Positions 1 through 64,000 of a stretch of 64,000 bases of DNA are shown piece after piece (the stretch's first letter is position 1; every line of letters starts with the position of its first letter). The notes under the pieces are model-generated. The model had not been told where the DNA came from, made no database searches, and was given only the letters and a program-made list of their open reading frames with translations. The stretch is from contig CALBKX010000015.1 of the NCBI GenBank assembly GCA_937895935.1, forward strand, positions 31,079 to 95,078. The letters run 5' to 3'. This stretch comes from an uncultured Clostridia bacterium. Lineage in GTDB: Bacteria > Bacillota > Clostridia > Christensenellales > UBA1242. The translations under genes were made by a program, and so were the position numbers.

Positions 1-34
1 TATTTATTAAATTTGTTATTTGATAAATATACAC
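1..34 (-). CDS. GIY-YIG homing endonuclease, first 11 codons only (gene runs off the left edge)
   Basis: RBS AAAGGAGGTG (rc of 41-50), 6-nt spacer, GTG at 34. Translation VYIYQITNLIN resembles the opening GIY strand of the free-standing GIY-YIG ORF at 11357-12175 (KGIYKITNKKNGKSYIG). Lies inside the presumed dnaE intron. Confidence 0.4.
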   Translation of the reverse strand, partial: MYIYQITNLIN

Positions 35-248
35 GTTTTTCACCTCCTTTCTTTGAATATTATTTGTACCCTTATTTCAAGAACTTAAAGAAATAAATAA
101 CTTTAATACTTTTTAGTTCGGTGATTGCCATGCCTTTAAGGTTTAGGTTTCCCCGAAGCACTATTAGTATTTTTTACTTATGAGACTTATTCTCTCTGCT
201 AATAGCACTTTATTTTTTATAATTAAGCGTTAGTGGGCAATGTTATTT
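1..248 (-). mobile_element. Group I intron (5' portion, continues beyond window) interrupting the Pol III alpha gene
   Basis: The Pol III alpha ORF stops at ...TSEKLG|K* inside the conserved GLLKxDxLGL motif. The last exon base is U (ggt). About 210 nt of non-coding sequence with hairpins follows, then an endonuclease gene start. Confidence 0.5.
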
Positions 249-2102
249 ACCCAATTTTTCACTAGTGTGGAGGTCATATTGAGTTGTCAAATCGCCATTT
301 GGACTACGCATAAGAGCATTTGTCTCAAATGGAGTTTTATTATATAATACTACTCCACTTGCGTGTTGTCCTCTTTTGTTCTTTAATCCTTCTATAGCTT
401 CCAATATTTCTAAAAGACCCGGATATTTTTCTATTTCATTTATAAAACTTTTTATAGGTTTAGTCCCTTTTTCTTCATTCCCATATAACACGTCTTTTAA
501 TGGCGGTAAAAAGCCACGTTCTTTTGGAATTAAACTGCTTAAATATTGTGCTGTTTCTATCGGCAATCCATCAGGATATTCTTTAGAACGATACCCACGA
601 CATCCACTATTAATTGCACTTTTTAATGTTTCAGTTCCGAAAGTGCATACTTGAATTAGATTTAGTTCTCCTCTTTCTCCTCTAATTTTTTCAAAAATCA
701 TCTTTCTTTTTGATGGAGACAAATCTATATCAATATCGGGCAATTCAATTCTTTCCTTATTTAAAAATCTCCAATATTTCAAATTCCATTTTATTGGGTC
801 TAATTGAGTTATTCCCATTAAATAATTTGACAGAAAACAAACAGAGCTACCTCTACCACTTAATAAAACAGAACCGCAGTCCCAAAATAAATCAATATAA
901 TGTTTAAAAGTATTAAAATATTTAAACAAAACATTGTTTAATTTTTCTCCAATTACTCGAATAACATCTGCTTCTGTTTCTAATCGAGTAAGATACTTTT
1001 TGTTCCATTTGCCTATTCTTTTTAAAGAAGATAAACATTCATTTATCCAATATCTTTCTTGTATCTCATCCGATTTTAATAAATAAGAAAGAGTGGGGTA
1101 GTCTTTAAGCTCTTCTTTTTTAAGATAATCCTTTACTGTTACTTCTGGAATAATAGGCTTTTTAAAAAGATTGTATCCTTCAATTTTTTTATAAATCTCC
1201 ATTGAATTTTTACAAATTTGTTCAAACTCTTCTAAGCTGTAGAAATCAGAGATATTATTATATATTTCCTTATTGTCCATAAAATGTGCGTCCCAATAAA
1301 ATTGGTCAACTTCCCGCTCGCCTTCTTTAGAATTCAAATAGGCTTTATGAAGAGGTCTCTCTTTAGAAGTAAGATAGTGAGCATCAGAACCAATTATTAT
1401 TTTTAAATTATACTTTTTAACAATACTTTTTATCCTTTTATTGAAGGCTCTTTGCTCTTCTGAATTTCCTGCGGCGATTTCAAAGTAAAAGTCTTCTCCA
1501 AATAATTTTATATTCCATTTTAAAAAATCATCAATATCTTTTTTAATTCTATTTATTTCTTTTAACAGACCTTTTTCTTCAGCTTTTATTAAGCTCAACA
1601 CTCTATTACCTATATAACCGCCGATACACCCATTAGATGCAATTAGACTATTCGGATATTTTTTAACTATTTGTTCTAAATCTGACATCTCTGTAGGAAC
1701 TCTATACATACCTCTTGAAGAAAAACCATTATACCAAGCAATAGAACTTAACTCTCTTAATGCTCTATGTCCTTGATTATTCTTTGCTATTAATATATAG
1801 TGAAAATACTTTTCTATATTTTTTTTATCTTTTACTAAATAAATTTCATTCCCTAAAGCACATTTAAAGTTTTCTGGAATTACCTTTTCTTTTTTTAATC
1901 TTTTTTCCTCTTCTAATAACTCGATATGCCCACTTAAACATTCGTGGTCTGTAAGTGTTATACCTATTAACCCAAGATTATTCGCAGTTTTTATCATATC
2001 TGGAATTTTATTAATACTATCAAGCAGACGTAGGTTTGAATATTCACTATGAGCATGAGTATCAAATCTAAGAAGTTCTTTTATCCCAACCATTTTTATC
2101 AC
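249..2102 (-). CDS. dnaE: DNA polymerase III alpha subunit, exon 1 (PHP domain plus N-terminal polymerase core)
   Basis: PHP motifs HAHSEYSNLRLLDS and LTDHECLSGH. Long collinear similarity to Pol III alpha. ORF truncated within the GLLK motif by an intron. Confidence 0.8.
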
Positions 2103-2121
2103 CTCTTTATTCTCTATATTA

Positions 2122-2150
2122 ATTATACTCCTAATTATTCACTTTTTCAA
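2122..2150 (-). promoter_or_regulatory. Sigma-A type promoter for dnaE (TTGAAA-17-TATAAT)
   Basis: The rc reads ttgaaaaagtgaataattaggagtataat followed by taatatagag, the recurring downstream ATAGA block. Confidence 0.55.
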
Positions 2151-2978
2151 TTCTTCATAATAGCTAACAAAATCTCCTTTTCCAAAACCCGGAATTGTAG
2201 TATTTCTTGCCGCCAAACTATTAAAGTCCATTTTTAATATTATTTCTTCTGCTTTTTGATTCAAAAATTTTATAAAAAAGAATTGCTGACCATTTCTCAT
2301 TCTCTCTATAACTTCACTCTTAGCTTTAAGGTAAAATAGTTGATTATAATCATGCCAACCCTGTCTAAACACTGCTAAATCCCAATCTTCATAAACATTA
2401 TTAAAAGATTGTGAAGTAGCATTATACTGCCAAATTAAAAAGTCTTTATGACTAGTTTTTGGCGGCGAGGTTAATCTTTTATTTATTGAACATAGTCTTT
2501 CTTTTGCCCAAATCTGAAAGACTGTTCTTATTTTATATTCTTTACTGCTTTCTAAAAAAGAATTTTCGGGCAAGTAGAAATAATCGACTAAGTTGTAGGT
2601 GGCATTTAATTGCTTTTGAATATTCCATTTCATAAAAGAAACAGGAAAAATCATAGCAATATAATCAGCGAAAGTTGCCGATTTATTAAAAAATAATACA
2701 GCATCATTTGAACGTTTCCCAAAAGGAGGATTCCCAATTACAATATATTCTTTATTTAAATCCGGCTGATAGTCTAAAAAATTTAACTTTTTAATAGTTT
2801 GGTTTTCTGGATATAAATCATAAGCTTCACAATTTTGTAATTGAGATGAAAAACTTCCATTTCCAGCTGAGGGTTCTAAGAGAATATAGTCATTAAAATT
2901 TGGAATATGTTCTTTTGTAAAATTAATACACCTTTTTGCTATATCGAGTTTTGTATAATACTTATCGTTTTTTGTTAT
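2139..2978 (-). CDS. N6-adenine DNA methyltransferase (NPPF type), paralog of 4271-5101; no canonical start codon
   Basis: The frame is open upstream of the tracked ORF (2139-2654). It translates to ...KYYTKLDIAKRCINF...LLEPSAGNGSF...VIGNPPFGKRS..., collinear with ORF 4271-5101. No in-frame ATG/GTG/TTG lies before 2654. The proposed start is ATA at 2978, 9 nt after GGAGGTG. Confidence 0.65.
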   Translation of the reverse strand: MTKNDKYYTKLDIAKRCINFTKEHIPNFNDYILLEPSAGNGSFSSQLQNCEAYDLYPENQTIKKLNFLDYQPDLNKEYIVIGNPPFGKRSNDAVLFFNKSATFADYIAMIFPVSFMKWNIQKQLNATYNLVDYFYLPENSFLESSKEYKIRTVFQIWAKERLCSINKRLTSPPKTSHKDFLIWQYNATSQSFNNVYEDWDLAVFRQGWHDYNQLFYLKAKSEVIERMRNGQQFFFIKFLNQKAEEIILKMDFNSLAARNTTIPGFGKGDFVSYYEELKK

Positions 2979-3957
2979 AGTTATACACCTCCCAGAATGC
3001 TAAAGAAGCAATTTGATAAGCCTCTTGAAAGCTTATTCTCTTTCTGTTTCTATCTCTAAAATTGGTTAATATAATATTGTTATAATCTTTTCTAGCTTTT
3101 TGAATAATAGAGTTTGCTTTTTTAATAATTTCTTTTTGGAGATTGTCTTCTAAGTCGTAATTACAGGAAAGAGTAGCTATATTTCTATCAGAATCTTTCC
3201 CATAATAAGGGCTTTCAGAATAATAAAAATGTAATGGTTCATTCTTTTTATCAATACAGACTATGTTTATTTTTGTTGGCTTTTTGATATTATTCTCTGT
3301 AATTCTTGAAAAGATATTTTTTACTTTTGTTAATTTATCAAAGAACTCGCCGCCAAACCTATAATTATATCCTTTTTTTAATATCATTTCATTTTCTTTC
3401 GTTTCATTTTTGCTATTGTAAATTATAAAAGGTATTCTTTGAGTATCATTACTTGAATGCTTCTTAAAAGCAAAAGAACAAACATTGTATGCAGTTTTTT
3501 CAAATACTTGCTCTTCAAAATAATTTATTCTTTCTATTTTAAATCTTGTTAAAAAGATATTCCTAATTTTATTAGAACGACTATCAGAGAAAAAATTAAT
3601 TGGGATAACTAATATTCCTCCTTCCGCCTGAAGCATAGTAGAAAGAGCAACTTTATATAAATCATCATAATCATTGTCTAAAAAATACTTTTTTTCTTTT
3701 GTTTTGTTTTTTGCTAAATACGGTGGATTTGTAATTATCCACTTTCCTTGATAGTCTGGCGGCGATAGTAGAGTATCTCTTTTATGTTCGCCTCCGAGAT
3801 TAATATCATAATACTCAGATACATTAAAGTTTTTGACTAAATCTCCATCTCCATAAAAAGGTTCAACTATTTTTGCAGTTGCCGGAATAAAATCAGTCAA
3901 ATTATCAATCAATAAAGGATTCTTTGAATAATGTTCGGTTTTTTTTAAATCATTCAA
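2962..3957 (-). CDS. N6-adenine DNA methyltransferase (NPPY type)
   Basis: SAM motif I VEPFYGDGDL and motif IV ITNPPY. Confidence 0.7.
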   Translation of the reverse strand: MNDLKKTEHYSKNPLLIDNLTDFIPATAKIVEPFYGDGDLVKNFNVSEYYDINLGGEHKRDTLLSPPDYQGKWIITNPPYLAKNKTKEKKYFLDNDYDDLYKVALSTMLQAEGGILVIPINFFSDSRSNKIRNIFLTRFKIERINYFEEQVFEKTAYNVCSFAFKKHSSNDTQRIPFIIYNSKNETKENEMILKKGYNYRFGGEFFDKLTKVKNIFSRITENNIKKPTKINIVCIDKKNEPLHFYYSESPYYGKDSDRNIATLSCNYDLEDNLQKEIIKKANSIIQKARKDYNNIILTNFRDRNRKRISFQEAYQIASLAFWEVYNYNKKR

Positions 3958-4293: not shown

Positions 4294-5101
4294 CACTAAT
4301 CTTTTCTTCTATTTTTTCTATTAGTTCGCCTTTTGACAAAGATTTTGGCCCACAAGTCCAACCTAATTCTTCATATTGTATTTTGTTAATTTCTTCTACT
4401 AACTCTTTTGTATCAATAGTTGTATTATTCTTTATAAAATAATTGCTGCTATCAGCATAATTCAAATCTAGACTAGCTTTTCCAGCATTGCCTCCAACTC
4501 TTTGTATTCTAAAATCAGCTTTATCTTTAGTGGTAAAATTAAAATATTTTGTTTTTGTTTTTATTTTATATTTCTTTCTTTTGGTATTTTTCTTTTGCCA
4601 AATTTGAAATACACATGGTAAAGAGTATTCTTGTTCGTAAAAAGTATAAGAATTTTTGTCTAAGATTTTTTCTCCTATACAAATGAAATATGGCGGCATC
4701 CTATTTATATAACTTTTTTTCTTAAAGGATAAAGGTAAAATGAAAGCAATTGTTTCAGCAAAAGTAGAGCATTCATTTATAAATAGGAAAGCTTCTTTTG
4801 CTTGTTGTCCAAATGGCGGATTACCAATTATTAAAACTCTTTTATCTTTTGTAAAGCTTTTGTCTAGTAGTAAAAAATCTTGTTTAATTATTTTATCATT
4901 TTCTGGAGATATATCATAAGCAAGACAATTCTTAAATAAATTTGAAAAACTTCCGTTTCCGGCAGATGGTTCAATTATCAAATCATAGCTTTTTAAATCA
5001 ATATGTTTTTGTAAAAAATCAACACATTCCTTTGCTACTTCTTTTTTTGTATAAAATTTATCTAGTAAATCCTTTTGCTTATTACTTTTTGTTATTCCCA
5101 T
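4271..5101 (-). CDS. N6-adenine DNA methyltransferase (NPPF type)
   Basis: IIEPSAGNGSF (motif I) and IIGNPPFG (motif IV). Confidence 0.75.
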   Translation of the reverse strand: MGITKSNKQKDLLDKFYTKKEVAKECVDFLQKHIDLKSYDLIIEPSAGNGSFSNLFKNCLAYDISPENDKIIKQDFLLLDKSFTKDKRVLIIGNPPFGQQAKEAFLFINECSTFAETIAFILPLSFKKKSYINRMPPYFICIGEKILDKNSYTFYEQEYSLPCVFQIWQKKNTKRKKYKIKTKTKYFNFTTKDKADFRIQRVGGNAGKASLDLNYADSSNYFIKNNTTIDTKELVEEINKIQYEELGWTCGPKSLSKGELIEKIEEKISVDFKGIM

Positions 5102-7323: not shown

Positions 7324-7800
7324 ATCCAAAATTAAAATATCATATCCTAAATCTTTGAGAATCTTACATTCTTCTGTGTCATTGCTACCAGCGTCAGGGA
7401 TTATGATTAAATCACAAACCCTATCTTTTAAAAATAAATCCATTTTTGTTTCTAAACCATGTTCTTTACCCTCTGGAATTGAATACTTTAAAGTATATTT
7501 ATATCCCTCATTTACTTTTAGCATTGATAAATAATTATAAATTATTGTGCTACTGGCTACGCCATCCAAATCTGAATCCATGATGATTAACATTGTGCTA
7601 TTGTTCTTAATATGCTTCTCTAATAGCTCTTTTCCCTCTTCCATATTATCCAATAACTCAGGCGGCAATAATTCTTTTACTGTGGGATTAAAATATCTAT
7701 TCTTGTAATCTTCGTTATCTTCTAAAATTCCTCTGTCAATTAACAAATTTTCTAAAAAATTCTCATTAATTTCTTTCTTTGTTCTTCTTAAAAACTTCAA
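7324..7800 (-). CDS. RecJ-like DHH-family exonuclease, exon 1
   Basis: DHH motifs I (MDSDLDG) and II (IIPDAGS), ending with the D of motif III. Confidence 0.7.
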
Positions 7801-8858
7801 ACGTAAATCGCTCTCCTTAATAATTTTTCAAAAGTTTCCTTTCCTTTATCTAAAGGGCTGTCTTTTAACCCTAACAGTTTCTGATAGTCCCATAAAAACC
7901 CCATTTTACATAAAGAACTAAATTTTAAACAATAGCCTTTTAATTTTTGATAATATTTTTGTTTCTCTTTATAATCTTTACCTTCTTTATCAAAAGCAAT
8001 AATAATTCTATTTACTCCAATTTTTTTTAATATTTCTATTTGATAACGATGAATTGAACTGCCGCAAGCTGCTACACAAATGTTTGCCGCTGAGCCATAA
8101 TAAGTTTCATATAATAAAACAGATTTTTCACCCTCTACAAGAATAGCCGTTTTATATTTTTTTAAATTATCTTTTACATTATTTATTCCATACAAGTTAA
8201 ATCCTAATGGATGAGAATAGGTTGTTTCACCAACAGAAATAGGCATATATTTTCCTATTTTTAAGTCTTCTGGATTCAATGAACGACCTCTTATTCCAAT
8301 TAGTTTACCGTCTATATTATAATGTGGAATAATAATCTTATTCTGACTAATGGAATAAAGAATATTATATCTATCCATTGCTGCCTTCGAGATTCCATCA
8401 CTTAGCCATTCACTTGTATAATATTTAATAAAACAATTTAAAATGCCACTATCATATTCTTTTAGATTAATGACTGGTCGACGTCTATGAAAATCAGAAT
8501 AAATTGTTTCATAACTTTTGTAGTCAAAAGATTCAATATAATTTTTCTTTTTTAAATCATCAACAACTTTTAGAACTATGTCTCTGTAAAAATCGTATTG
8601 GATTCCTAATAAATTATATCTTCTTTCAAAAAGACCAAAAATATCAAAAGATTCGCCACAATGCGTATAACAAGTAAAAAGTTTGGAATTTTTGTAATAA
8701 TACAATTTTAGACTTGCTTCTTCTGGGTTTTCATTATGACACAAAGTTTGAAAAATAATACAATCTTTTTTTTCAATATGAGTTGTGCCGCCTAAAGAAT
8801 AAACTAATTCAATTATCCTTTGCGGCGTTAATTGTTCATTTAATTCTTTTAATGTCAT
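7797..8858 (-). CDS. dnaG: DNA primase (DnaG-like: CHC2 zinc finger plus Toprim)
   Basis: CHNENPEEASLKLY...CYTHCGESFD zinc finger and Toprim ILVEGEKSVL. Overlaps neighbours by 4 nt. Confidence 0.75.
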   Translation of the reverse strand: MTLKELNEQLTPQRIIELVYSLGGTTHIEKKDCIIFQTLCHNENPEEASLKLYYYKNSKLFTCYTHCGESFDIFGLFERRYNLLGIQYDFYRDIVLKVVDDLKKKNYIESFDYKSYETIYSDFHRRRPVINLKEYDSGILNCFIKYYTSEWLSDGISKAAMDRYNILYSISQNKIIIPHYNIDGKLIGIRGRSLNPEDLKIGKYMPISVGETTYSHPLGFNLYGINNVKDNLKKYKTAILVEGEKSVLLYETYYGSAANICVAACGSSIHRYQIEILKKIGVNRIIIAFDKEGKDYKEKQKYYQKLKGYCLKFSSLCKMGFLWDYQKLLGLKDSPLDKGKETFEKLLRRAIYV

Positions 8859-10586: not shown

Positions 10587-11267
10587 TTATTCAATAGAAT
10601 CTAAATCAATTTGTTTCTTTTTCTTTCTCTTTTTATACAAAAATTGAGATGGATTATAAGGAATTTCAATTCTGTCTCTTTCTAATTGCTTTTTAATTTG
10701 TTCTTCAATTAACTTTTGTTCCGCCGCCTTTTCTTTATAATAATTTATTGAATCTTTTAGAACATAAGTGATAATACCGATTGTTTTATACTCTTCTTTT
10801 ACTCTATTTCTTTTAATTTCATAAAAGTATTTCAAAGTTAAAAGCTGGGCTTTATAAGAAATTCCTTGATTTAACATTCGGTTCATTAATGTTAAATTAT
10901 GAACACTTACTGGTTCTTCTTCTGAATTAACTCCAAAAAGTCTAATAATGTAATAAAACAAAGCATCTCTATCATCATAATTTTTCTTTTTTAACTCTTT
11001 GTTTTCTTCTGATAAATATTTTCCGGCAATAGCATATGAAATGTTTAATTCTTTTGCTACACGAGATAGATTTTTGTATTCTTTGTATTTTTTATTTATT
11101 TCATTAATCAATTCGGGAGATAGTTCTTTTCTAACTTTCTTCTTATTTGAATATTTGCTTACAGTTGCCGGACTTAGTTTCAAAATTTCTGCCACTTCTT
11201 TTTGTGTTTTTTCTTTTAAAAGTTCATTAATTTGCTCTACAATTTCCGGCGTAATTTTAGTTCTCAT
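10587..11267 (-). CDS. Helix-turn-helix DNA-binding protein (two HTH repeats), function unknown
   Basis: Start revised to ATG 11267 (RBS GAGAGG, promoter at 11301-11329). Repeats TQKEVAEILKLSPATVSKY and LSRVAKELNISYAIAGKY. Confidence 0.5.
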   Translation of the reverse strand: MRTKITPEIVEQINELLKEKTQKEVAEILKLSPATVSKYSNKKKVRKELSPELINEINKKYKEYKNLSRVAKELNISYAIAGKYLSEENKELKKKNYDDRDALFYYIIRLFGVNSEEEPVSVHNLTLMNRMLNQGISYKAQLLTLKYFYEIKRNRVKEEYKTIGIITYVLKDSINYYKEKAAEQKLIEEQIKKQLERDRIEIPYNPSQFLYKKRKKKKQIDLDSIE

Positions 11268-12195: not shown

Positions 12196-12600
12196 TTAAA
12201 TTTCATCCAAATATTCTGCCGCCTGAGCAACTAAACTACGTTCAATTCTTCTTAGCTTTACCGCAGCAAAAATTTTAGAATAAATTGGAGATTCTCTTAA
12301 TTTCAGCAATAACTTTAAACCACTCTTATCTTTAAAAATTAAGCTGTCTGTTTGTTTTAAATCACCATCAAAAAAGATTCTGCTATTTTCGCCGCAACGA
12401 GAAATCAAAAGCTTAATATGGTATTCAGTTAAGTTTTGTGCTTCATTGATAATAACAATAGCATTTGAAAAACTGCGTCCTCTGATAGAAGCAATAGGAA
12501 CGACTTCTAATTCTTCTAGTTCAATCATATTTTGAACTCTGTCGATTCCGATTAAGTCAATTAACGGGCCAATTTGACCACTGATTTTTGGGAGTAAATC
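12196..12600 (-). CDS. phoH: PIN-PhoH ATPase, exon 3
   Basis: Begins DLLPKISGQIGPLIDL, continuing the GxLPG|DL.eK PhoH motif. Contains INEAQN (Walker B region). Length 405 nt, in frame. Confidence 0.8.
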   Translation of the reverse strand, partial: DLLPKISGQIGPLIDLIGIDRVQNMIELEELEVVPIASIRGRSFSNAIVIINEAQNLTEYHIKLLISRCGENSRIFFDGDLKQTDSLIFKDKSGLKLLLKLRESPIYSKIFAAVKLRRIERSLVAQAAEYLDEI

Positions 12601-13918: not shown

Positions 13919-13942
13919 TCGCCGCCACTCCTATAAATAAGT

Positions 13943-37927: not shown

Positions 37928-37932
37928 ATATT

Positions 37933-50399: not shown

Positions 50400-51540
50400 T
50401 TATGCCGCAACTCATCCATGTTTTACAGGAAAATTTTTAAAAATGTGTTATAAAGACATAGGCAACCCTTCTTCTACACACGAATCTGGATTAATTCTTA
50501 AAAGAAATTATGACCAAACGATAGAATATCTTAAAAAGAATTTGTTTGCTAATGACATTACTATTACTTCTGGAGCAACTGAATCTAATAATTTGGCGGC
50601 AAGAATTGGAATTGAATATTGTTTAGAAAAACCATATACAAATGGTATTGCTTATAGTAGCATTGAACATCCATCAGTAAGTAAAGCCATTGAAGGACAT
50701 TCAAAAGATGTTTTTTTATGGACGTATGAACTTGGATTGCGATATTTTTTTGGAAAAGGTTGGGAAGAAAGATTAAAAAATAAGTTAAAAGACTGTAATA
50801 TTGGCTTTCTTTCGGTTATGACAGTTAACAATGAAACTGGCATTCGTTTTCCTGTTGAAAAGATTTACAAGATTTGTAGAGAATTAGGTGTATTGTTTCA
50901 TACAGATGCTTCACAATCTTGGCTACAGGTAAATCTAAATCCTAATTATGATAGAGAAAATAATTTATATATGATAACTTATTCTGGACACAAAATTGGA
51001 GCGTCTATTGGTAGCGGAATTTTAGTCAATGGACAAAATCTTTGTCGAGTAGTTCCTTGTCTATTGTATGGCGGCGAACAGCAAGATTTACGCTCAGGAA
51101 CTTTAAATTATCCTACCTTAAGAGAATTGGACTATGCGATTTTGAATTATAAGCTTAAAAAGCATTATGACGTTAGCAATGGAGTAAGAGGATATAAAAA
51201 AGCTTTTGCAGACTTAATTAAACAATACTCTGGAGAAATTATTACTTATAAGGATTGCTATAATTACTCGCCATATATTTTAAGTTTTTATTTCAAAAAT
51301 TTTGATGGAGAATTTGTCCAAAAGTTTATGTCAAAGAATGGAATCTATCTTTCTGCTGGTTCTGCTTGTTCTAGAGGAAATAGACAAGGTTCTAAAACGA
51401 TTAAAGAACTGGGATATAATGAACAAATAGCAAAAAATGCTTTAAGAATTTCTTTTTCACCACATATGCTTGAAGAAGAACTTGCTTATGCTTATAAGCG
51501 TTTCAAAGAGGTGCTGATTGAATTAAATGAATTGTCCTAA
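50380..51540 (+). CDS. Cysteine desulfurase (class V aminotransferase; NifS/IscS/DndA-like)
   Basis: LDYAATHP, SGATESNN, HTDASQS, PLP lysine YSGHKIGA, active-site loop SAGSACS. Confidence 0.75.
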   Translation: MEQIYLDYAATHPCFTGKFLKMCYKDIGNPSSTHESGLILKRNYDQTIEYLKKNLFANDITITSGATESNNLAARIGIEYCLEKPYTNGIAYSSIEHPSVSKAIEGHSKDVFLWTYELGLRYFFGKGWEERLKNKLKDCNIGFLSVMTVNNETGIRFPVEKIYKICRELGVLFHTDASQSWLQVNLNPNYDRENNLYMITYSGHKIGASIGSGILVNGQNLCRVVPCLLYGGEQQDLRSGTLNYPTLRELDYAILNYKLKKHYDVSNGVRGYKKAFADLIKQYSGEIITYKDCYNYSPYILSFYFKNFDGEFVQKFMSKNGIYLSAGSACSRGNRQGSKTIKELGYNEQIAKNALRISFSPHMLEEELAYAYKRFKEVLIELNELS

Positions 51541-52516
51541 AAATAAGGAAATAGTTAAAGCTTTTTTAACAACAGAAGAAAAACTAAAAGATTATAAAAA
51601 CATCATGCTTACTACATCTGGCGGTGCGGATTCTGATATTATGCTTGATATGGTATATAGAAATTTGCCGCCAAATACTAATATTCATTATGTGTTTTTT
51701 GATACTGGACTTGAATTTCAAGCGTCAAAAGACCATTTAAAAGAACTTGAAAAAAAATATAATATTAAAATTGAAGTTGAAAAACCTTATAAGCCGATTC
51801 CAGTTTGTTGTAAAGAATATGGACAGCCATTTCTGTCTAAATTCATTAGTGATTACATTAGTCGTTTACAACGTCATGATTTTAAATGGGAAGACAGACC
51901 TTTTGAGGAACTTTACAAAGAATATCCACATTGTAAGTCTGCTTTAAAATGGTGGTGTAATTATCAGCCCGGCAGAAAAGATGGCTCTCAGTCTAAATTT
52001 GGAATCGGCTATTATCCTTATCTGAAAGAATATATGGTATTAAATCCTCCAACTTTTAAAATTTCAGATAAGTGCTGCCAATATTCTAAAAAAGAAGCAG
52101 CAAAGAATTATCATAAGAAATATAATATCGATTTAACTATGACAGGTGTTCGCAAAGCAGAAAAGGGGCAAAGAGCAGATGCTCATAAAAGCTGCTTTAG
52201 CCGCCATGACAAAGGTAAACCAGATGAATACAGACCGTTATTCTGGTTTAAAAAGCAAGATAAAATTGATTATGATGAATTCTTTGAAATTAAACACAAT
52301 CGATGTTATACTGTTTATGGAATGGATAGGACTGGCTGTGGCGGCTGTCCATTTGGTAAGGACTTTGAGGAAGAGCTTTTAATCATGGAGAAGTTTGAAC
52401 CTAAGCTAAAAAAAGCAGCTGAATACATTTTTAAGGATTCATATGAATATACCAGAAGATATAGAGAATTTAGAAAGAAAAGAACAGAGGAGGATAAAAA
52501 AAAGAATGAAGAATAA
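51527..52516 (+). CDS. PAPS-reductase-family PP-loop ATP pyrophosphatase with multiple Cys pairs (DndC/TtuA-like)
   Basis: PP-loop TTSGGADSD, TGVRKAEKGQRA, YRPLFWF...YGMDRTGCGGCPFG, plus CC pairs. Overlaps the desulfurase gene by 14 nt. Confidence 0.65.
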   Translation: MNCPKNKEIVKAFLTTEEKLKDYKNIMLTTSGGADSDIMLDMVYRNLPPNTNIHYVFFDTGLEFQASKDHLKELEKKYNIKIEVEKPYKPIPVCCKEYGQPFLSKFISDYISRLQRHDFKWEDRPFEELYKEYPHCKSALKWWCNYQPGRKDGSQSKFGIGYYPYLKEYMVLNPPTFKISDKCCQYSKKEAAKNYHKKYNIDLTMTGVRKAEKGQRADAHKSCFSRHDKGKPDEYRPLFWFKKQDKIDYDEFFEIKHNRCYTVYGMDRTGCGGCPFGKDFEEELLIMEKFEPKLKKAAEYIFKDSYEYTRRYREFRKKRTEEDKKKNEE

Positions 52517-52746: not shown

Positions 52747-53004
52747 ATGTTTAATAGAGTTATGCTTTTGGGAACACAAGATGTTAAGAAGTTTGTTGAT
52801 TTAGCTAATACAGTTAAGTCAGATGTAAGACTTATGAATCGTTCTAGAAATTATGTCGTTGATGGCAAATCTTATTTGGGCGTGCTATTGGCAGCAACTG
52901 AATGGAAAGATGATACATGGATTCAATGCGATGAAGATATTTATAGTCTTATGGAATATTTTATTGTAATTTGTGCTGATGATGCCGCCAATGTTCATGA
53001 GTAA
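52747..53004 (+). CDS. Second HPr/Crh-like fold protein, also without a His15 equivalent
   Basis: VVDGKSYLGVLLAATEWKDDTWIQCDED aligns with HPr V(N/D)(A/L)KS(I/L)(M/L)GV(M/L).L. Start ATG 52747 after AAGGAG. Confidence 0.45.
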   Translation: MFNRVMLLGTQDVKKFVDLANTVKSDVRLMNRSRNYVVDGKSYLGVLLAATEWKDDTWIQCDEDIYSLMEYFIVICADDAANVHE

Positions 53005-55628: not shown

Positions 55629-55974
55629 ATTTGACAAAGTTGTAAAAGAAATTAAAGAGTATAAAAGAAAATCATCTTACTATTTGGAAACCGCATATGG
55701 TTTAGACTTTAATTGTAAGAATGGTTTCTTTCCTTGCGAAGTTTACAATCTTGACCGTTCCATTGCTCTTGAAATTTTACCTAGACTGTTGTATTTTAGA
55801 GACGCAACAACCACTTATCCCGGCGGTTTTAATTCATTAGAGGATTGGCGGCGAGAATTAAATAATATGTGTAATGAATTTTATAACTATATTTTTGATG
55901 AAGATTCCTACTCTGGTAGTGTTATAAATCCCTACATTAAATTGGCAGAATATGCTCCAGTTTTGTGGAATTAA
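55621..55974 (+). CDS. Hypothetical protein (117 aa)
   Basis: ORF overlapping the previous gene by 8 nt. Confidence 0.4.
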   Translation: MLEFDKVVKEIKEYKRKSSYYLETAYGLDFNCKNGFFPCEVYNLDRSIALEILPRLLYFRDATTTYPGGFNSLEDWRRELNNMCNEFYNYIFDEDSYSGSVINPYIKLAEYAPVLWN

Positions 55975-56803: not shown

Positions 56804-56968
56804 ATGCTTGAATTTTTATACTTTTTAGTAAAAATTGCGGCGGCGGTATTAATCGTTAAATATATTTGTGAAACAATACAAGTATATTTATCTCCAGAAA
56901 AGAAAAAACAAAAGAAAAAATTGTTCGACCCATTTTACATAGATGAGGATAAATTAGAAAGGAAATAA
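56804..56968 (+). CDS. Small membrane protein (54 aa)
   Basis: ATG 56804 after AAGGAG. TM segment FLYFLVKIAAAVLIVKYI followed by a Lys-rich tail. Confidence 0.4.
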   Translation: MLEFLYFLVKIAAAVLIVKYICETIQVYLSPEKKKQKKKLFDPFYIDEDKLERK

Positions 56969-58392: not shown

Positions 58393-59832
58393 ATGAATTT
58401 TTCTGATAAAATTAAATCTTTAACAAACTTAAAACAAACTGAAAACGGCGGCGTAGCTTATTCTACCAGTGGTTCTCCTTTACTGGACTTATTTGCTTGG
58501 GGCGGCAGCCTAAGAACTCGTAGCGAAGAAGAAATTAAGAATATGTATCTTGCCGCAAGAGACGAAGACAAAGAATTAGCAGACTCTTTTGTTCTCTATG
58601 TAAGAGATATTCGTAATACCGGATGTGGCGAACGTAGAACTGGCAGAATTTTATTAAAAACTTTGGCGGCATTAGACCCGAACAAGATTATTAGAAATTT
58701 TCAAACCATTGTTAATGCTGGAAGATACGATGATTTATTCATTTTCATTGGAACACCAGTCGAAAAAGAAATGTTTTCCTTTATCAAAGAGCAATTAACA
58801 AAAGATATTATTAGTTATGAAAAGAAAGAACCCGTTAGTTTATTAGCTAAATGGCTTAAAAGCGCCAATACTTCAAGTAAAGAATCCAGAGATATTGCCA
58901 GAAAAACATATAATTTTTTAGGAATTAATGAAAAGGATTATAGAAAGCTACTTTCTATTTTAAGAGAATATTTAAATATTACAGAACGCTATATGAGTCT
59001 AAATCAATGGGAAAAGATTGATTTTTCTAAAGTCCCTTCTTATTCTATGAGCAAATATAAAAATGCTTTTAGAGATAAGCAACCTGAACGATTCCAAGAG
59101 TATATTGATAGTCTAAAAAGTGGAGAAACAAAGATTAATTCTTCTGTATTATTTCCACATGATTTGATTAAGAAATATGACATAACTCATACTGATGATA
59201 TTATAGAAGAACAATGGAAAGCTTTACCCAACTATGTAAATGGTGAAAAAGATGTTTTGGTTATGATTGACATCTCAGGTTCAATGGTAGTGGATGGGGC
59301 AATCTATGTTTCTATAGGATTAGGGATTTATTTTGCTCAAAGAAATAAAGGGGCTTACCATAATCAATTTATGACTTTTTCTAAAAAGCCTAGATTGGTT
59401 AGTCTAGATGATTGTCATACTTTACGAGACAGTATCACAAAAACATCAAATCCATCTTATGTAGGTTTTAATACTGATTTAGATAAAGCTTTTCATTTAA
59501 TTTACAATATAGCAAAAGATACAAATGACGCTCCAGCAGCTTTAGTTGTTATTAGCGATATGGAAATTGATTCATACAGAGAAGATAGCTTCGGTATTGT
59601 CGATAAATGGAGAAGGAAATTTGATGAGATTGGTGTTGAATTACCAAAGCTAATTTTATGGAACGCACAATCAAGAAATGATACTCAACTATCAGATAAA
59701 AATGACCCAAATATTAGTTTCATTTCTGGATGTTCTGCCGCAACTTTTAATCATTTAGATACATTAATTAATAAAAGTTCTTATAGTGCTATGGTTGAGA
59801 TTTTATCTTTGCCACAATTTCAATGGCAGTAA
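58393..59832 (+). CDS. DUF2828-like protein with C-terminal vWA domain (Ro60/TROVE-like architecture)
   Basis: N-terminus KQTENGGVAYSTSGSPLLDLF...YVRDIRNTGCGERR matches my recollection of the DUF2828 signature. vWA MIDAS VLVMIDISGSM and ...VVISDME. Confidence 0.5.
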   Translation: MNFSDKIKSLTNLKQTENGGVAYSTSGSPLLDLFAWGGSLRTRSEEEIKNMYLAARDEDKELADSFVLYVRDIRNTGCGERRTGRILLKTLAALDPNKIIRNFQTIVNAGRYDDLFIFIGTPVEKEMFSFIKEQLTKDIISYEKKEPVSLLAKWLKSANTSSKESRDIARKTYNFLGINEKDYRKLLSILREYLNITERYMSLNQWEKIDFSKVPSYSMSKYKNAFRDKQPERFQEYIDSLKSGETKINSSVLFPHDLIKKYDITHTDDIIEEQWKALPNYVNGEKDVLVMIDISGSMVVDGAIYVSIGLGIYFAQRNKGAYHNQFMTFSKKPRLVSLDDCHTLRDSITKTSNPSYVGFNTDLDKAFHLIYNIAKDTNDAPAALVVISDMEIDSYREDSFGIVDKWRRKFDEIGVELPKLILWNAQSRNDTQLSDKNDPNISFISGCSAATFNHLDTLINKSSYSAMVEILSLPQFQWQ

Positions 59833-59932: not shown

Positions 59933-61522
59933 TTGTATACACAAGAAGAAACTCAATTTTATCCAACTCCTAAAGAACTGGCTGAACATATTGGAAGAAA
60001 AATTAATCAAAGAGAAATTCATTCTGTATTAGAACCATCCGCTGGAAAAGGCGATTTATTGCTAGCATTAGATACAAAATATTCAAGAGCTATTGAAGTT
60101 ATTGAAACTGACCCAAATTTACAAGCTATTTTAAAAGAAAAAGATTATCCTATTGTTGGAGATGATTTTTTAAATTTTTCAACTTATATGTCTTATGATT
60201 TGATTCTAATGAATCCACCATTTAAAGATGGAGACAAACATTTACTCAAAGCTATTGAAATTCAAAAGAATGGCGGACAAATTGTTTGCATTTTAAATGC
60301 TGAAACCTTAAAAAATCCTTATTCTAATACAAGAAAAGAACTTTTAGCAAAAATTGAAGATTATGATGGAGAAGTGGAATATTTAATTTCTGCTTTTTCT
60401 AATGCTGAAAGAAAAACAGATGTTAAAATCGCCATTGTCTATTTGAATATTCCTAAAGTGATATATAATATGGATATTTTTAATAATTTAATTGCTGGAG
60501 AAGAATTCAATTCAACTTATGAAGAATATAATAAATATCAATTAGCTACTAATAATACAATTTCAAATATTTTAAAACAATATAATGATGAAAGTCGTTT
60601 AGGTTTAACTTTGATTGATACTTATGAAAAAATGGCGGCAATTATTCCTGATTATACTTTTGGCGGCACAAAAACTCCTTTAATTAAAATGTCGATTAGT
60701 AGCTCAGAGACTGAAGATGAAAAAAAGAAGCATTATTCGCTCAAGAATTCCTTCATTCGACAATTAAGATATAAATATTGGAGTTTATTGTTCCAAAGCA
60801 ACGAATTATCAAAACTTTTTACACAAGAAGTGAAACAACAATACATGACACAATTAAATAAAATGCGGGCATATGATTTTACTCCAGCAAATATTAGAAA
60901 AATCTATGCTGATTTGTCTAAAAATCTGTCTAACAATATTGAGGCAGCAATTCTAAAACAATTTGATGAATTATCTTATCAAGGTTCTTTAGAAAAAGTA
61001 AACAATATTCATTATTTTAATGGCTGGAAGACTAATTCCGCCTTTAAAATCAATAAAAAAGTTATTATTCGTCATATGTATAACGGCAATGGGTGGAATT
61101 ATTCTTATAAAGGTAGAGATATTCTTGAAGAGTTAGAAAAGATTTTTACTTATTTAGATGCAGAAAAAAGAGATGGTGAACCTATTTATCCTATTCTGTC
61201 TAAAGCTTTTAATCGTTGGAATTATGCTGGTGAACGACTACATTTTAAATATTTTGATGTAGAATTTAAAAAGAAAGGAACTCTACATTTATGGTTCAAT
61301 GATTTGGAACTATTAAAAAAATTTAATATCTTTGGGGCTAATAAGAAAGGCTGGTTGCCAAATGATTATGGAAAAAAATCTTATAGCGAAATGAATGAAG
61401 AAGAAAAAGAAGTAGTAAATTCTTTTGAAGGAAAGAAAGAATATGAAGATACCATGAGAAATAGTTCCTATTATTTAGGGAATACAACTCAAAACTTTTT
61501 AGGAATCGAAATGAATACTTAA
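59933..61522 (+). CDS. N6-adenine DNA methyltransferase (NPPF) with a long C-terminal extension
   Basis: FYPTPKELAEHI, LEPSAGKGDL (motif I), LILMNPPF (motif IV). TTG start 7 nt after GAGGAGGT. Confidence 0.7.
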   Translation: MYTQEETQFYPTPKELAEHIGRKINQREIHSVLEPSAGKGDLLLALDTKYSRAIEVIETDPNLQAILKEKDYPIVGDDFLNFSTYMSYDLILMNPPFKDGDKHLLKAIEIQKNGGQIVCILNAETLKNPYSNTRKELLAKIEDYDGEVEYLISAFSNAERKTDVKIAIVYLNIPKVIYNMDIFNNLIAGEEFNSTYEEYNKYQLATNNTISNILKQYNDESRLGLTLIDTYEKMAAIIPDYTFGGTKTPLIKMSISSSETEDEKKKHYSLKNSFIRQLRYKYWSLLFQSNELSKLFTQEVKQQYMTQLNKMRAYDFTPANIRKIYADLSKNLSNNIEAAILKQFDELSYQGSLEKVNNIHYFNGWKTNSAFKINKKVIIRHMYNGNGWNYSYKGRDILEELEKIFTYLDAEKRDGEPIYPILSKAFNRWNYAGERLHFKYFDVEFKKKGTLHLWFNDLELLKKFNIFGANKKGWLPNDYGKKSYSEMNEEEKEVVNSFEGKKEYEDTMRNSSYYLGNTTQNFLGIEMNT

Positions 61523-61553: not shown

Positions 61554-61582
61554 TAGAAATGAGTTGCCGCCTGTGCTATAAT
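61554..61582 (+). promoter_or_regulatory. Sigma-A type promoter (weak -35, TGcTATAAT)
   Basis: tagaaatgagttgccgcctgtgctataataattatagaaag. Confidence 0.5.
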
Positions 61583-61960: not shown

Positions 61961-62314
61961 ATGTTTACTTGTTGTTTGTGTGGTAAAAAATATAGCACTT
62001 CTAACGAAGCTGTGCAATGTGTTAATCGTTGCGGAAGAGAGTATCAGAGAGATGGAAAATTTTCAGTAAAAGAATCTGTATATAGAGAGGGAAAGAAGAC
62101 GGTGTCTTTTTCGCATCAATATAGTAGCACAGAAACATTAGAGAACATTTTCAACGAAGTAAAAGAAATCACACCTGAACCTGAGTTTAAAAATTTTAAG
62201 ATTTCTATTTTAAAAGGTTGGGACACGTTATCACTGCTTGAAAAAGAAAATAGAATTAAGTCGGCGGCAATGGTGAGAGATTTGATGTATGTTAGTAAAA
62301 TGTTCAAAAATTAA
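61961..62314 (+). CDS. Hypothetical zinc-finger protein (CCLCG...CVNRC)
   Basis: ORF with RBS AAGGAG. Confidence 0.4.
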   Translation: MFTCCLCGKKYSTSNEAVQCVNRCGREYQRDGKFSVKESVYREGKKTVSFSHQYSSTETLENIFNEVKEITPEPEFKNFKISILKGWDTLSLLEKENRIKSAAMVRDLMYVSKMFKN

Positions 62315-62356: not shown

Positions 62357-62385
62357 ATATGCAGGAAGTTGAGAGGAGCGATAGG

Positions 62386-62580
62386 GTGGAAACGTATATT
62401 TTTACAATTTATAATCCAGAAAGTTCTAAGTATTTTTTCTATAAACAGGATTTAGGCTATGAGTGTAGTGAGAATCTATTGAATCATTTATTGAAGGAAT
62501 ATTGTAGGATTGAAAGTAATAGAGATAATTACGAAGAAAGCTTGTCAAAATCTTTTTGGGAAATGAAAGGAGATATGTAA
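62386..62580 (+). CDS. Hypothetical protein (64 aa)
   Basis: The tracked ATG 62359 lies 3 nt after the -10 box. GTG 62386, 7 nt after GAGAGGAG, is the more plausible start. Confidence 0.35.
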   Translation: METYIFTIYNPESSKYFFYKQDLGYECSENLLNHLLKEYCRIESNRDNYEESLSKSFWEMKGDM

Positions 62581-62581
62581 A

Positions 62582-63190
62582 ATGGATAGTGTATATGTTA
62601 TTATTAAAGATTTAAGAAATAATGTTGTTATGGCAGAAGCATATTGTTCGCCTGACAACTATAATGAATTTGTGTATGATTCATTAAGCAAGTTTATTAA
62701 ATTGAGTGGAAGTGATAAATATGAGTTGTCGGCAAGATTAGATGAATATCAAAGTTGTGAATTCTTGGGGTATTTGATTACTTTAAAAGACAATTCTGAA
62801 AAAAAATGGCGGCGTTATTTTCCAGAAAGCTATAAAGATTATATTAATGATTTAATTACCAAAGAAACTTTACTTTTGAATTGTGATGAATCTGATTATT
62901 ATGTTTTTCAAGATAAAGAGGATAGAGAACGCTGGCATGAACTTTTAACCAAAAGAATTGATAGGGAGAGCTACTGGGATGTATCTTATGACGTAAACTA
63001 TAATTATTTAACTAATATTTACAAAAAAGAGTTTGAAATCTTTAAGAAGAATGTAGAAAAAGAATTAGGATGTTTTCCACTTGATGTAAAAACTGAACCA
63101 AATCTTGTTCGTGCGGCAATGGAAATTTGGTACATTAGACTGTTTGAAAAGAATGTTGAATGGGGATATTTGCCAGATATTGTTGAGTAA
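62582..63190 (+). CDS. Hypothetical protein (202 aa)
   Basis: ORF only. Confidence 0.4.
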   Translation: MDSVYVIIKDLRNNVVMAEAYCSPDNYNEFVYDSLSKFIKLSGSDKYELSARLDEYQSCEFLGYLITLKDNSEKKWRRYFPESYKDYINDLITKETLLLNCDESDYYVFQDKEDRERWHELLTKRIDRESYWDVSYDVNYNYLTNIYKKEFEIFKKNVEKELGCFPLDVKTEPNLVRAAMEIWYIRLFEKNVEWGYLPDIVE

Positions 63191-63203
63191 GAAAGGAGTA
63201 GTT

Positions 63204-64000
63204 CATGAAATTAAAAATTCAAGAGTTCATAAATAACCACTCCAATTGGCAAGAATTATTGTCTAATGCTCCTTATAATTTAAAAATTACTTATAAAAAT
63301 GGATTATATTGTTTCAAATATAATCAAATCAATTCTGATTTTAGCAATCCTATTGTCTGCGAAGCTCGTGGTCTTATTTTGGATGCTAAAACTTTTAAAG
63401 TTGTGTGCTGTCCATTTTTTAAATTCTTTAATATTGACGAATCTCATGCTGCAAAAATTGATTGGAAAAATGGAATTTCTGTTAGTGAAAAAATTGATGG
63501 TAGCTTAATTAAACTTTATTATTGGAATGATAAATGGAATGTGGCTACTAATAGTGGAATTGATGCTGTTGATTCTAACTTAAGTAATAATGCCGTTTAT
63601 AAGAATTTCTATGAACTTTTTATGGCGGCATTACCTTCTACTTTTTCTTTTGATAATTTAAATAAAGCTTATACTTATGTATTTGAATTGGTATCGCCAT
63701 TTAATAAAGTTGTCATTTCTTATGATAGACCTAAGTTATATCTTTTAATGGTAAGAGATAATGAATCTTTGAAAGAAGTCAATTACAATTTTTCTGATAT
63801 AGAAAAGCCAGAAATTTATTTTGTAAGAACAGAAGAAGATTGCCGCCGTTTGATTCAAAGACTAAATGATAGTAATGTTTTAACTGAAGGTGTTGTTATA
63901 AAGGATTCTCATAACAATAGAGTTAAATTAAAAACAGCGAAATACTTTGATTTACATTATATGGTTAATAATCATGTAATGACTTTGGATAGACTTATTC
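63204..64000 (+). CDS. RNA ligase, Rnl2 family (partial, runs off the right edge)
   Basis: Not in the ORF track because it has no stop within the window. ATG 63204 after AAAGGAG. Motif I SEKIDGS (KxDG), motif III YVFELVSP, motif IV EGVVIKD, motif V VKLKTAKY. Confidence 0.75.

Follow-up and report, generated by a model that had tools for sequence, protein, structure and literature searches.

GGCGGC(A/G), a short asymmetric word kept by selection on the DNA of a large AT-rich gut phage and possibly Chi-like in nature

The hexamer GGCGGC is dispersed in great excess through a 64,000 nucleotide stretch of contig CALBKX010000015.1 (positions 31,079 to 95,078; the whole of this stretch is referred to below as the window), which is part of an AT-rich gut phage of ~157 kb. 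Our analyses indicate that GGCGGC(A/G), or GGCGGCR, is a short asymmetric word that is maintained by selection acting at the level of the DNA. Of the roles that may be considered for this word, the most likely is a Chi-like one in an orientation-neutral form, to which we assign a rough probability of 0.4. The window has a G+C content of 29.3% and is assigned by protein family scans to a large Firmicute-type phage; this phage is also represented by a contig of 156.8 kb and is present in dozens of gut metagenome assemblies.

An exact count has identified 67 copies of GGCGGC in the window, 41 on the plus strand and 26 on the minus strand, against a zero-order expectation of ~0.65 per strand for an all-G/C hexamer. 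The right arm of the window (beyond 33.65 kb) carries 31 copies on the plus strand and 6 on the minus strand, and the left arm 10 and 20, respectively. GGCGGC(A/G) is found about once per kb, which is ~20 to 50 times expectation. More than half of all possible all-G/C hexamers (33/64) are absent from the window, and the other frequent ones are shifted forms of GGCGGC (GCGGCG, 23 copies; CGGCGG, 12 copies); the pentamers GGCGG and GCGGC occur 105 and 112 times on both strands, vs. ~8.6 expected each. The initial annotation of this sequence, which was made by eye, had tallied ~67 copies arm by arm and strand by strand, and the exact count matches it to the copy. The copies are listed below by coordinates, strand and 3' neighbour, followed by their orientation, frame (f0-f2) and encoded peptide and by the open reading frame (ORF) in which they lie, with its strand.

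2209..2214, minus, A; sense f2 LAA, ORF 2139-2654 (-)
2461..2466, plus, G; antisense f2 SPP, ORF 2139-2654 (-)
3349..3354, minus, G; sense f0 GG, ORF 2962-3957 (-)
3758..3763, plus, G; antisense f2 SPP, ORF 2962-3957 (-)
4692..4697, plus, A; antisense f2 MPP, ORF 4271-5101 (-)
7661..7666, plus, A; antisense f2 LPP, ORF 7321-7800 (-)
8787..8792, minus, A; sense f0 GG, ORF 7797-8858 (-)
10723..10728, minus, G; sense f2 KAA, ORF 10587-11381 (-)
12218..12223, minus, A; sense f2 QAA, ORF 12196-12528 (-)
13764..13769, minus, A; sense f2 RAA, ORF 13211-13918 (-)
13921..13926, minus, G; intergenic
15197..15202, minus, A; sense f0 GG, ORF 15041-15982 (-)
15632..15637, minus, T; sense f0 GG, ORF 15041-15982 (-)
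15752..15757, minus, A; sense f0 GG, ORF 15041-15982 (-)
16703..16708, plus, A; antisense f0 AA, ORF 16436-18787 (-)
16926..16931, minus, A; sense f2 LAA, ORF 16436-18787 (-)
17813..17818, minus, A; sense f0 GG, ORF 16436-18787 (-)
18458..18463, plus, T; antisense f0 AA, ORF 16436-18787 (-)
19147..19152, minus, A; sense f2 MAA, ORF 18801-19388 (-)
22269..22274, minus, A; sense f2 LAA, ORF 21722-22276 (-)
23441..23446, minus, A; sense f0 GG, ORF 22844-23512 (-)
28116..28121, minus, A; sense f0 GG, ORF 28050-28460 (-)
28674..28679, minus, A; sense f1 GRQ, ORF 28447-28851 (-)
29114..29119, plus, A; antisense f0 AA, ORF 28838-29671 (-)
29625..29630, plus, A; antisense f2 VPP, ORF 28838-29671 (-)
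30291..30296, minus, G; sense f0 GG, ORF 29757-30869 (-)
30671..30676, plus, T; antisense f1 SRQ, ORF 29757-30869 (-)
31484..31489, minus, G; sense f1 WRR, ORF 31146-31700 (-)
31782..31787, minus, A; sense f2 WAA, ORF 31685-32056 (-)
32240..32245, plus, A; antisense f0 AA, ORF 32126-32689 (-)
33881..33886, plus, G; sense f0 GG, ORF 33710-33973 (+)
34109..34114, plus, A; sense f2 AAA, ORF 33975-34265 (+)
34311..34316, plus, A; sense f0 GG, ORF 34278-35774 (+)
34764..34769, plus, A; sense f0 GG, ORF 34278-35774 (+)
35103..35108, plus, A; sense f0 GG, ORF 34278-35774 (+)
36248..36253, plus, G; sense f0 GG, ORF 35789-36682 (+)
37610..37615, plus, A; sense f0 GG, ORF 37502-37927 (+)
37694..37699, plus, A; sense f0 GG, ORF 37502-37927 (+)
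38416..38421, plus, A; sense f0 GG, ORF 37924-39294 (+)
39193..39198, plus, G; sense f0 GG, ORF 37924-39294 (+)
39481..39486, plus, A; sense f0 GG, ORF 39301-39582 (+)
39815..39820, plus, G; sense f0 GG, ORF 39587-43012 (+)
40228..40233, plus, A; sense f2 QAA, ORF 39587-43012 (+)
41099..41104, plus, G; sense f0 GG, ORF 39587-43012 (+)
41731..41736, minus, A; antisense f2 LPP, ORF 39587-43012 (+)
44094..44099, plus, G; sense f0 GG, ORF 42975-44738 (+)
47004..47009, plus, A; sense f0 GG, ORF 46179-47390 (+)
47886..47891, plus, A; sense f2 MAA, ORF 47680-48798 (+)
48631..48636, plus, G; sense f0 GG, ORF 47680-48798 (+)
50595..50600, plus, A; sense f2 LAA, ORF 50380-51540 (+)
51070..51075, plus, G; sense f0 GG, ORF 50380-51540 (+)
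51667..51672, minus, A; antisense f2 LPP, ORF 51527-52516 (+)
52200..52205, minus, T; antisense f1 SRH, ORF 51527-52516 (+)
52340..52345, plus, T; sense f0 GG, ORF 51527-52516 (+)
52984..52989, minus, A; antisense f0 AA, ORF 52741-53004 (+)
55847..55852, plus, G; sense f1 WRR, ORF 55621-55974 (+)
56839..56844, plus, G; sense f2 AAA, ORF 56786-56968 (+)
58447..58452, plus, G; sense f0 GG, ORF 58345-59832 (+)
58501..58506, plus, A; sense f0 GG, ORF 58345-59832 (+)
58665..58670, plus, A; sense f2 LAA, ORF 58345-59832 (+)
60634..60639, plus, A; sense f2 MAA, ORF 59933-61522 (+)
60662..60667, plus, A; sense f0 GG, ORF 59933-61522 (+)
61566..61571, minus, A; intergenic
62263..62268, plus, A; sense f2 SAA, ORF 61961-62314 (+)
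62808..62813, plus, G; sense f1 WRR, ORF 62582-63190 (+)
63624..63629, plus, A; sense f2 MAA, ORF 63202-63999 (+)
63842..63847, minus, A; antisense f1 CRR, ORF 63202-63999 (+)

The excess is not an artefact of assembly, because independent assemblies of the same phage are available for five or more samples and the GGCGGC counts are identical across the shared 21 kb. The copies form isolated islands, the flanking 50 nt on each side being at the genome average of 29% G+C, and the gaps between them are Poisson-like (coefficient of variation 0.93; the largest gap, 4.7 kb, is unremarkable), which rules out the regular spacing of a packaging or priming signal. An expansion of GGC microsatellites is likewise ruled out, since only three copies reach 8-10 nt and relatives differ by substitutions and not by 3-nt indels. 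No hairpins formed by inverted copies were seen within 100 nt at the copy positions of the window. Three homing endonuclease genes and NrdD (3.9 kb summed) hold 0 copies, vs. ~4 expected.

The copies are found in all six reading frames relative to the genes: 29 encode Gly-Gly, 17 encode Ala-Ala in the form xxG-GCG-GCx and 4 occupy the third sense frame, and the remainder comprises 7 antisense Pro-Pro, 5 antisense Ala-Ala, 3 copies in the third antisense frame and 2 intergenic copies. A synonymous codon shuffle, which the initial annotation had suggested as a check, does not reproduce the count: 500 shuffles within each gene, with the amino acid sequence and per-gene codon usage kept, gave 10.3±2.5 copies (maximum 20) vs. 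the 67 observed. This null is conservative because the GGC, GCG, and CCG codons contributed by GGCGGC itself stay in it. Under a codon-aware model, which sums the per-position probability that the encoded amino acids spell the word and takes its background codon usage from sequence away from GGCGGC, 2.7 copies are expected in coding sequence and 64 are observed, a 24x enrichment. The same skew is seen in the spelling of individual dipeptides. Gly-Gly is written GGC-GGC in 29/78 cases (GGC makes up 19% of Gly codons, and 14% at isolated Gly), the 73 Ala-Ala pairs include 27 GCG-GCN and 20 GCC-GCN (GCG and GCC each account for ~10% of Ala codons), and Pro-Pro is written CCG-CCN in 13/24 cases. 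These skewed spellings had been described in the initial annotation, in which all of the listed Gly-Gly and Pro-Pro positions are correct.

The specificity of the enrichment for this word is evident from the codon junctions. The first codon ends in G or C at word-forming junctions in 53% (GGC-GG), 37% (GCG-GC), 25% (GCC-GC), and 54% (CCG-CC) of cases, whereas other pairs in which the second codon starts with G or C are not raised (GGC-GC 0/43, CGS-GG 0/15, GCS-CC 0/10, GGS-CG 1/18) and Ala-Gly is at baseline. Because junction G/C exceeds the baseline by far only where GGCGGC results, the enrichment is word-specific and generic G/C clustering is ruled out. The complete lack of GGC-GCN among Gly-Ala pairs (0/43) is due to the avoidance of 4-bp palindromes, which accounts for this value but not for the 24x excess. 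The excess is also not a generic trait of AT-rich Firmicute phages, as the word is at background in Staphylococcus phage K (1+1 copies per 100 kb) and distant relatives of the phage polymerase have 0-3 copies per 15-22 kb. Hence, the presence of the word in six frames, its survival under codon-preserving nulls and its specificity for word-forming junctions uphold the earlier proposal that selection acts on the DNA word and not on the protein. The three homodipeptides into which the word can be written, Ala-Ala (2.0x), Pro-Pro (1.4x), and Gly-Gly (1.3x), are the most over-represented ones in the encoded proteins and all others are at 0.7-1.13x, which suggests that the pressure on the word has also marked these proteins.

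Left of a divergence point at 33.65 kb the genes of the window are encoded on the minus strand, and right of it on the plus strand; the G/C skew along the window has the same pattern. The ~3:1 bias toward the transcribed orientation that was reported in the initial annotation is real as a raw skew (49:15), but it is not a polar property of the word: coding constraints predict a sense fraction of 0.755, equal to that observed (binomial p=1.0), so the skew is not an independent property, and the copies read outward from 33.65 kb because the genes are transcribed outward. Both orientations are strongly enriched in the codon-aware model (sense 19.4x, 49 vs. 2.5; antisense 15.2x, 15 vs. 1.0), as are the out-of-frame sense copies (20-44x), and Ala-Ala, which may be written either way, is divided 27 vs. 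20 (p=0.24). The outward orientation had been said to fit an enzyme entering from the genome ends or co-orientation with replication from a central origin; this interpretation is not sustained, as both orientations are enriched and coding constraints absorb the whole of the skew (p=1.0). A polar or replication-oriented word, comparable to the FtsK-orienting polar sequences (KOPS), is ruled out by the sense/antisense tests and the Ala-Ala split.

These results also bear on the suggestion that the excess is a translational or codon-pair effect, viz. a preference for the GGC-GGC pair or an avoidance of the Shine-Dalgarno-like GGAGG. In-frame Gly-Gly is indeed the largest class of copies (29/67) and GGAGG is ~2-fold under-represented in coding sequence (0.52), which would push Gly-Gly off GGA-GGN. 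However, this explanation fails because antisense (15x) and out-of-frame copies are enriched, and it can hardly be correct in view of the second Gly codon, which also ends in C, and of phage K and the distant polymerase relatives, which are of similar G+C content and show nothing. The competing spellings stand at only 0.4-1.1x, far too mild for a 24x enrichment, and on this ground the possibility that the word is a by-product of avoiding GCWGC, GGAGG, TGCA, and 4-bp palindromes was also rejected.

The enrichment climbs with word length, from ~3x for tetramers and 5-8x for pentamers to 19-24x for the hexamer. It depends further on the 3' neighbour (GGCGGCA 38x, GGCGGCG 30x, GGCGGCT 6.5x), and GGCGGCC never occurs in the window; since A and G are favoured at this position and C is never found, the fuller motif is GGCGGCR. 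Variants that differ from the word at one of positions 3 to 5 are not enriched in the codon-aware model, and positions 1 and 6 are more tolerant; none of the variants is depleted (GGTGGC 1.2x, GGCGGT 3.1x, AGCGGC 2.1x, GACGGC 2.5x, GGCAGC 1.9x). A motif of this sharp and asymmetric kind is what would be expected for a site that is read by a protein.

Many relatives of this phage, 130-170 kb in size, are present in sequence data from the human gut and the rumen, and they are never found inside larger bacterial contigs; public contigs of the family in this size range include ERZ27300194 k119_71755. Every member of the family that was examined carries 0.6-1.5 copies per kb, including members whose endolysin is only 43-46% identical. 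About half of the individual sites are shared at ~90% nucleotide identity and 0/10 at ~70%. In comparisons of the window with three relatives, 26-36% of four-fold G/C positions differ inside the word and 52-61% elsewhere (Fisher p ~1e-5 to 1e-6 in the three relatives), and protection is of a similar degree at each word position that could be tested, whether G or C. At synonymous sites one step away from the word, the relative has the completed word 3-7 times oftener than it has the same base change elsewhere, a figure that is unpolarised and includes losses. One 130 kb relative (L036; ENA ERZ27249555 NODE_5) uses GGCGGCC, which is absent from the window, instead of GGCGGCR, and all 13 of its copies are in sense orientation. 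The upkeep of density, the turnover of sites and their protection, as judged from these comparisons, point to a directional force that is still acting on one particular word, with a specificity that is able to shift between lineages. The distant polymerase relatives (~40% identity) have GGCGGC at background, and the similar loci retrieved from the genome collection are located in Paenibacillus genomes. In three of these Paenibacillus-linked relatives (L008, L031, and L033), GGCTGTA/TACAGCC is a recurrent top outlier of the codon shuffle (6-7 copies vs. 1.1-1.4 expected), a weak signal that could represent a different lineage-specific word. A rumen relative (L004) carries the element acaatgcgCCGCGGt(a/g)tcataat three times (at 2102, 5384, and 17673), which may be a regulatory or mobile-element motif, and L036 has a gene for an IS605 OrfB/Cas12f-like TnpB at 710-1837. 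The palindromes GCCGGC and CCGCGG (11 and 7 copies in relatives) were considered as distinct words and rejected, being in part overlaps with the main word, or else a repeated element.

The pattern of substitution invites an explanation by biased mutation or repair without functional selection, either through a very-short-patch-like repair that is tied to cytosine methylation and restores the word or, where mutation is strongly AT-biased, through a slower decay of G/C within stable G/C clusters. The loss of synonymous G/C is rapid among these phages (52-61% changed at ~90% identity) but less so within the word, site turnover is high, the phage encodes a C5 cytosine methyltransferase, and CpG is depleted overall in the window (0.71x) yet 3.3x enriched in the context GCGG. 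Nevertheless, we consider this explanation improbable. An origin by very-short-patch repair fails because no T/A one-off variant is depleted, these variants, which the repair should remove, standing at 1.2-3.1x expectation; every testable word position, G and C, is similarly protected; and a generic effect of G/C neighbours is excluded by the junction table. The C5 enzyme, moreover, resembles the CpG methylase M.MpeI and not an enzyme for asymmetric sites of 6-7 bp, and the annotated portion of the genome yielded no Vsr-like gene.

The Chi-like interpretation, which we prefer, supposes that free ends of the phage DNA are exposed by injection, restriction cuts and rolling-circle tails. A host helicase-nuclease of the AddAB/RexAB type, or a phage-encoded analogue, would then degrade the phage DNA up to the word on the unwound strand, at which point the enzyme would presumably switch from degradation to the production of a recombinogenic 3' end. 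Both orientations would be useful everywhere because breaks occur anywhere and both break ends need protection, and an orientation-neutral enrichment thus fits such a mechanism. GGCGGC contains GCGG, the core common to the Chi sequences AGCGG (B. subtilis) and GAAGCGG (S. aureus), both quoted in bioRxiv 10.1101/2021.07.08.451572, although an overlap of 4 nt is weak evidence. A precedent is provided by Staphylococcus phage K, a large lytic phage of 30.6% G+C, in which the host Chi GAAGCGG is present 20 times in 100 kb vs. ~2 expected, with a codon-aware enrichment of 7.3x in sense and 6.7x in antisense orientation; large lytic Firmicute phages can thus accumulate the host Chi without polarity. 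Over-representation beyond codon and amino acid constraints, which is expected of Chi in DNA that is exposed to the enzyme, is also displayed by GGCGGCR (67 vs. 10.3±2.5; 64 vs. 2.7). The window is further characterized by a near-absence of 4-bp palindromes (observed/expected: GATC 0/171, CGCG 0/29, GCGC 1/29, GGCC 3/29, GTAC 6/171; ACGT, CTAG, and TGCA are at ~0.3x), which is a classic signature of restriction avoidance. Because the avoidance of restriction sites is so extreme, the phage is likely to be under heavy DNA-cleavage pressure, a setting in which surviving exonuclease attack would matter. The case for a Chi-like role is therefore made by the short, asymmetric, G-rich form of the word with its GCGG core, the precedent of phage K, the lineage-specific enrichment and the pressure of DNA cleavage. 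This role was among those proposed in the initial annotation and is the most plausible of them, with indirect support from phage K, but only in its orientation-neutral form.

Several observations weigh against a Chi-like role. A Chi is defined by enrichment and a replication-oriented skew in the core genome of the host and by an orientation-dependent effect on AddAB/RecBCD, namely attenuation of the enzyme and stimulation of recombination; the evidence here is drawn from phage genomes. The density of ~1.05 per kb is ~9 times that at which the S. aureus genome carries its Chi (335 copies in 2.82 Mb; bioRxiv 10.1101/2021.07.08.451572) and 5 times that in phage K. Sites are lost only ~2.4 times more slowly than other synonymous G/C, whereas a simple mutation-selection balance for a 20-fold enrichment predicts, by our calculation, a loss that is ~8 times slower. 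L036 has further dispersed G/C-rich words at ~0.5 per kb (GCGGCC 18, GCGCCC 11, GCCCGC 10), and another relative (L003) carries the extra G/C-rich word GCCGGC; these words are not explained by a single Chi. Lastly, another reader of the word could be supplied by the DNA-modification and helicase genes of the phage itself. Genes with a known or putative part in DNA modification, together with their neighbours, are as follows; some of them are located on a locus of the same phage that extends to the right of the window (L040).

2962-3957, N6-type methyltransferase
50380-52516, plus strand, pair of cysteine desulfurase and PP-loop protein
59933-61522, N6-type methyltransferase
L040 13719-15134, ~4 kb past the right end of the window, BrxL_N+BrxL_ATPase protein
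L040 17986-20148, ~8-10 kb right of the window, adjoining dCMP-deaminase-like protein (weak), C5 cytosine DNA methyltransferase and pentapeptide-repeat protein

The main rival of a Chi-like role, in our judgment rather unlikely, is a reader that is encoded by the phage and is not a host enzyme, with the word serving as a self-mark or as a binding site for modification, nuclease or compaction machinery of the phage. Copy number would matter under this explanation since each copy would give local protection or recognition. One candidate reader is a phosphorothioate-type module composed of the cysteine desulfurase, which matches SspA/DndA models (1e-55 and 9e-53), the PP-loop protein of the PAPS-reductase family directly after it, whose top match among defence models is BrxP, and the BrxL-like ATPase encoded just outside the window. 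These three proteins could represent a phage-borne BREX type 4 or phosphorothioate-like module, judging from their resemblance to BREX type 4, whose brxPCZL clusters produce phosphorothioate DNA (PMC12914056). A phage-encoded reader is also consistent with the enrichment being a property of the phage family, with the difference in the extended word between lineages, as would follow from co-evolution of the word with a specificity carried by the phage, and with a density above that of known Chi words. On the other hand, known phosphorothioate consensus sequences are of 3-4 nt, are not enriched in genomes encoding the system and are modified at only a fraction of sites, and no PglZ, BrxC, DndD/E, or SspB/C partner was seen in addition to the desulfurase, BrxP-like, and BrxL-like proteins. 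The PP-loop gene was found by a peptide scan only in the closest clade and in one phage of 49% G+C, and the desulfurase/PP-loop pair fits the thiolation or repair of tRNA-Lys(UUU) equally well. We know of no case of a modification motif that is enriched by selection. A more specific form of this proposal, which we hold to be doubtful though not of negligible probability, is that the word is a self-mark of the phage family for its own machinery (a BREX/Dnd-derived sulfur module, or a phage helicase-nuclease that would spare GGCGGCR-rich DNA during the destruction of host DNA), whose specificity would co-evolve with the word (GGCGGCR in most lineages and GGCGGCC in one).

The phage carries three DNA methyltransferases, and the initial annotation had listed a methyltransferase target among the possible roles of the word. 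This role is disfavoured, although the specificity of such enzymes is not read from sequence with certainty: GGCGGCR offers no invariant A to the two N6-type enzymes, and the best solved relative of the C5 enzyme is the CpG methylase M.MpeI (3e-30, with the target-recognition part included in the alignment), so that it looks like a CpG enzyme, which also speaks against it as a phage-encoded reader. The pentapeptide-repeat protein close to the C5 methyltransferase may be a DNA mimic.

The general organization of the window, as indicated by protein family scans together with the RNA genes, is summarized below.

Left arm, replication module: DNA polymerase, DnaB-like helicase, RecJ-like nuclease, Sak4-type ATPase, type II topoisomerase, NrdD, NrdG, and several homing endonucleases
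Right arm: tail genes, lysis genes, UvrD-like helicase, cysteine desulfurase followed by the PAPS-reductase-family protein, methyltransferase-DUF4942 protein, tRNA-Lys(UUU), and RNA ligase
11357-12175, 20583-21233, and 26041-26964, GIY-YIG and HNH homing endonuclease genes
13004-13226, minus strand, group I intron (Rfam RF00028, 69.6 bits), adjoining a PIN/FEN-like gene at 13211-13918
57436-57512, plus strand, tRNA-Lys(UUU)
63202-63999, plus strand, T4 Rnl1-type RNA ligase

The GyrB-like, RecJ-like, and NrdD regions look split by insertions of introns or homing endonucleases. The divergent intergenic region at 33013-33709 is extremely AT-rich (the 2-kb bin 32001-34000 has 18% G+C) and is rich in imperfect repeats made of A and T only, both direct and inverted; a role as origin or control region is possible. 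The tRNA-Lys(UUU), the Rnl1-type ligase and the desulfurase/PP-loop pair are all located in one genome arm, and they could form a set for the supply, repair and 2-thiolation of tRNA-Lys that is directed against an anticodon nuclease, which provides an alternative reading of the sulfur genes.

The endolysin is of the Gram-positive type and its nearest annotated relatives are found in Ruminococcus and Faecalibacterium phages. The sole hint of a host is one relative that was binned in an Erysipelotrichaceae metagenome-assembled genome. An endolysin scan of the genome collection did not find a host, the phage collection contained no blastn match, and all homologues retrieved with the endolysin, NrdD and a DUF285 protein were from contigs of uncultivated phages or from distant bacteria. 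Our searches of the literature on GGCGGC in phages and on Chi in Clostridia found nothing relevant.

If GGCGGCR is the Chi of a host enzyme of the AddAB type, an uncultivated clade of low-G+C Firmicutes of the gut or rumen would thereby gain its first Chi candidate, and a phage family of 130-170 kb could be linked to its hosts from sequence only, by way of genomes that are enriched and skewed for this word. It would also present a lytic phage that invests heavily in Chi mimicry while avoiding restriction sites to an extreme degree. With a reader encoded by the phage, the word would represent a new kind of viral DNA self-marking. Either way, a defined 7-mer with ~150 copies per genome provides an easily testable handle.

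Selected genomic words are a known class, in which GGCGGCR is best placed as a new word, probably a Chi-like one. DNA words are selected irrespective of reading frame also where they are targets of restriction-modification systems, to an extreme degree in this same genome, but selection there removes words whereas here it adds one, and a non-palindromic one. The KOPS/FtsK words, the SpoIIIE recognition sequences (SRS) and the "architecture imparting sequences" are, like GGCGGC, over-represented short words with a raw strand skew that switches at a central point; however, the polarity that defines KOPS and SRS is absent here, as the skew of GGCGGC vanishes under the coding model. The uptake sequences of Pasteurellaceae (USS) and Neisseriaceae (DUS) share with GGCGGCR a frequency of about one per kb, the presence of both orientations, an intragenic location in more than one frame, an imprint on the peptides that are encoded and a slight enrichment of one-off variants. 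They are, in contrast, 9-12 nt long and occur in naturally competent Proteobacteria, whereas GGCGGCR is of 6-7 nt and belongs to a phage of a Gram-positive-type host; a DNA uptake sequence is ruled out by the length of the motif and the type of endolysin, and it is implausible that a lytic phage should need uptake by the cell. The closest resemblance is to the AddAB/RexAB Chi sequences of Firmicutes, among which that of L. lactis is GCGCGTG. These sequences, like GGCGGCR, are short, asymmetric and G-rich, rank with the words of highest over-representation in AT-rich genomes, occur in all reading frames and mostly inside genes, and are lineage-specific; the GCGG core is shared with those of B. 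subtilis and S. aureus. GGCGGCR, a candidate recognized from sequence, differs from them in that no skew is left after coding is accounted for, and its density of ~1 per kb and ~24x enrichment are several-fold higher than those of the S. aureus Chi in either its genome or phage K. The qualitative picture is, nonetheless, the same as that of the host Chi in phage K, where both orientations are likewise enriched over the codon-aware expectation.

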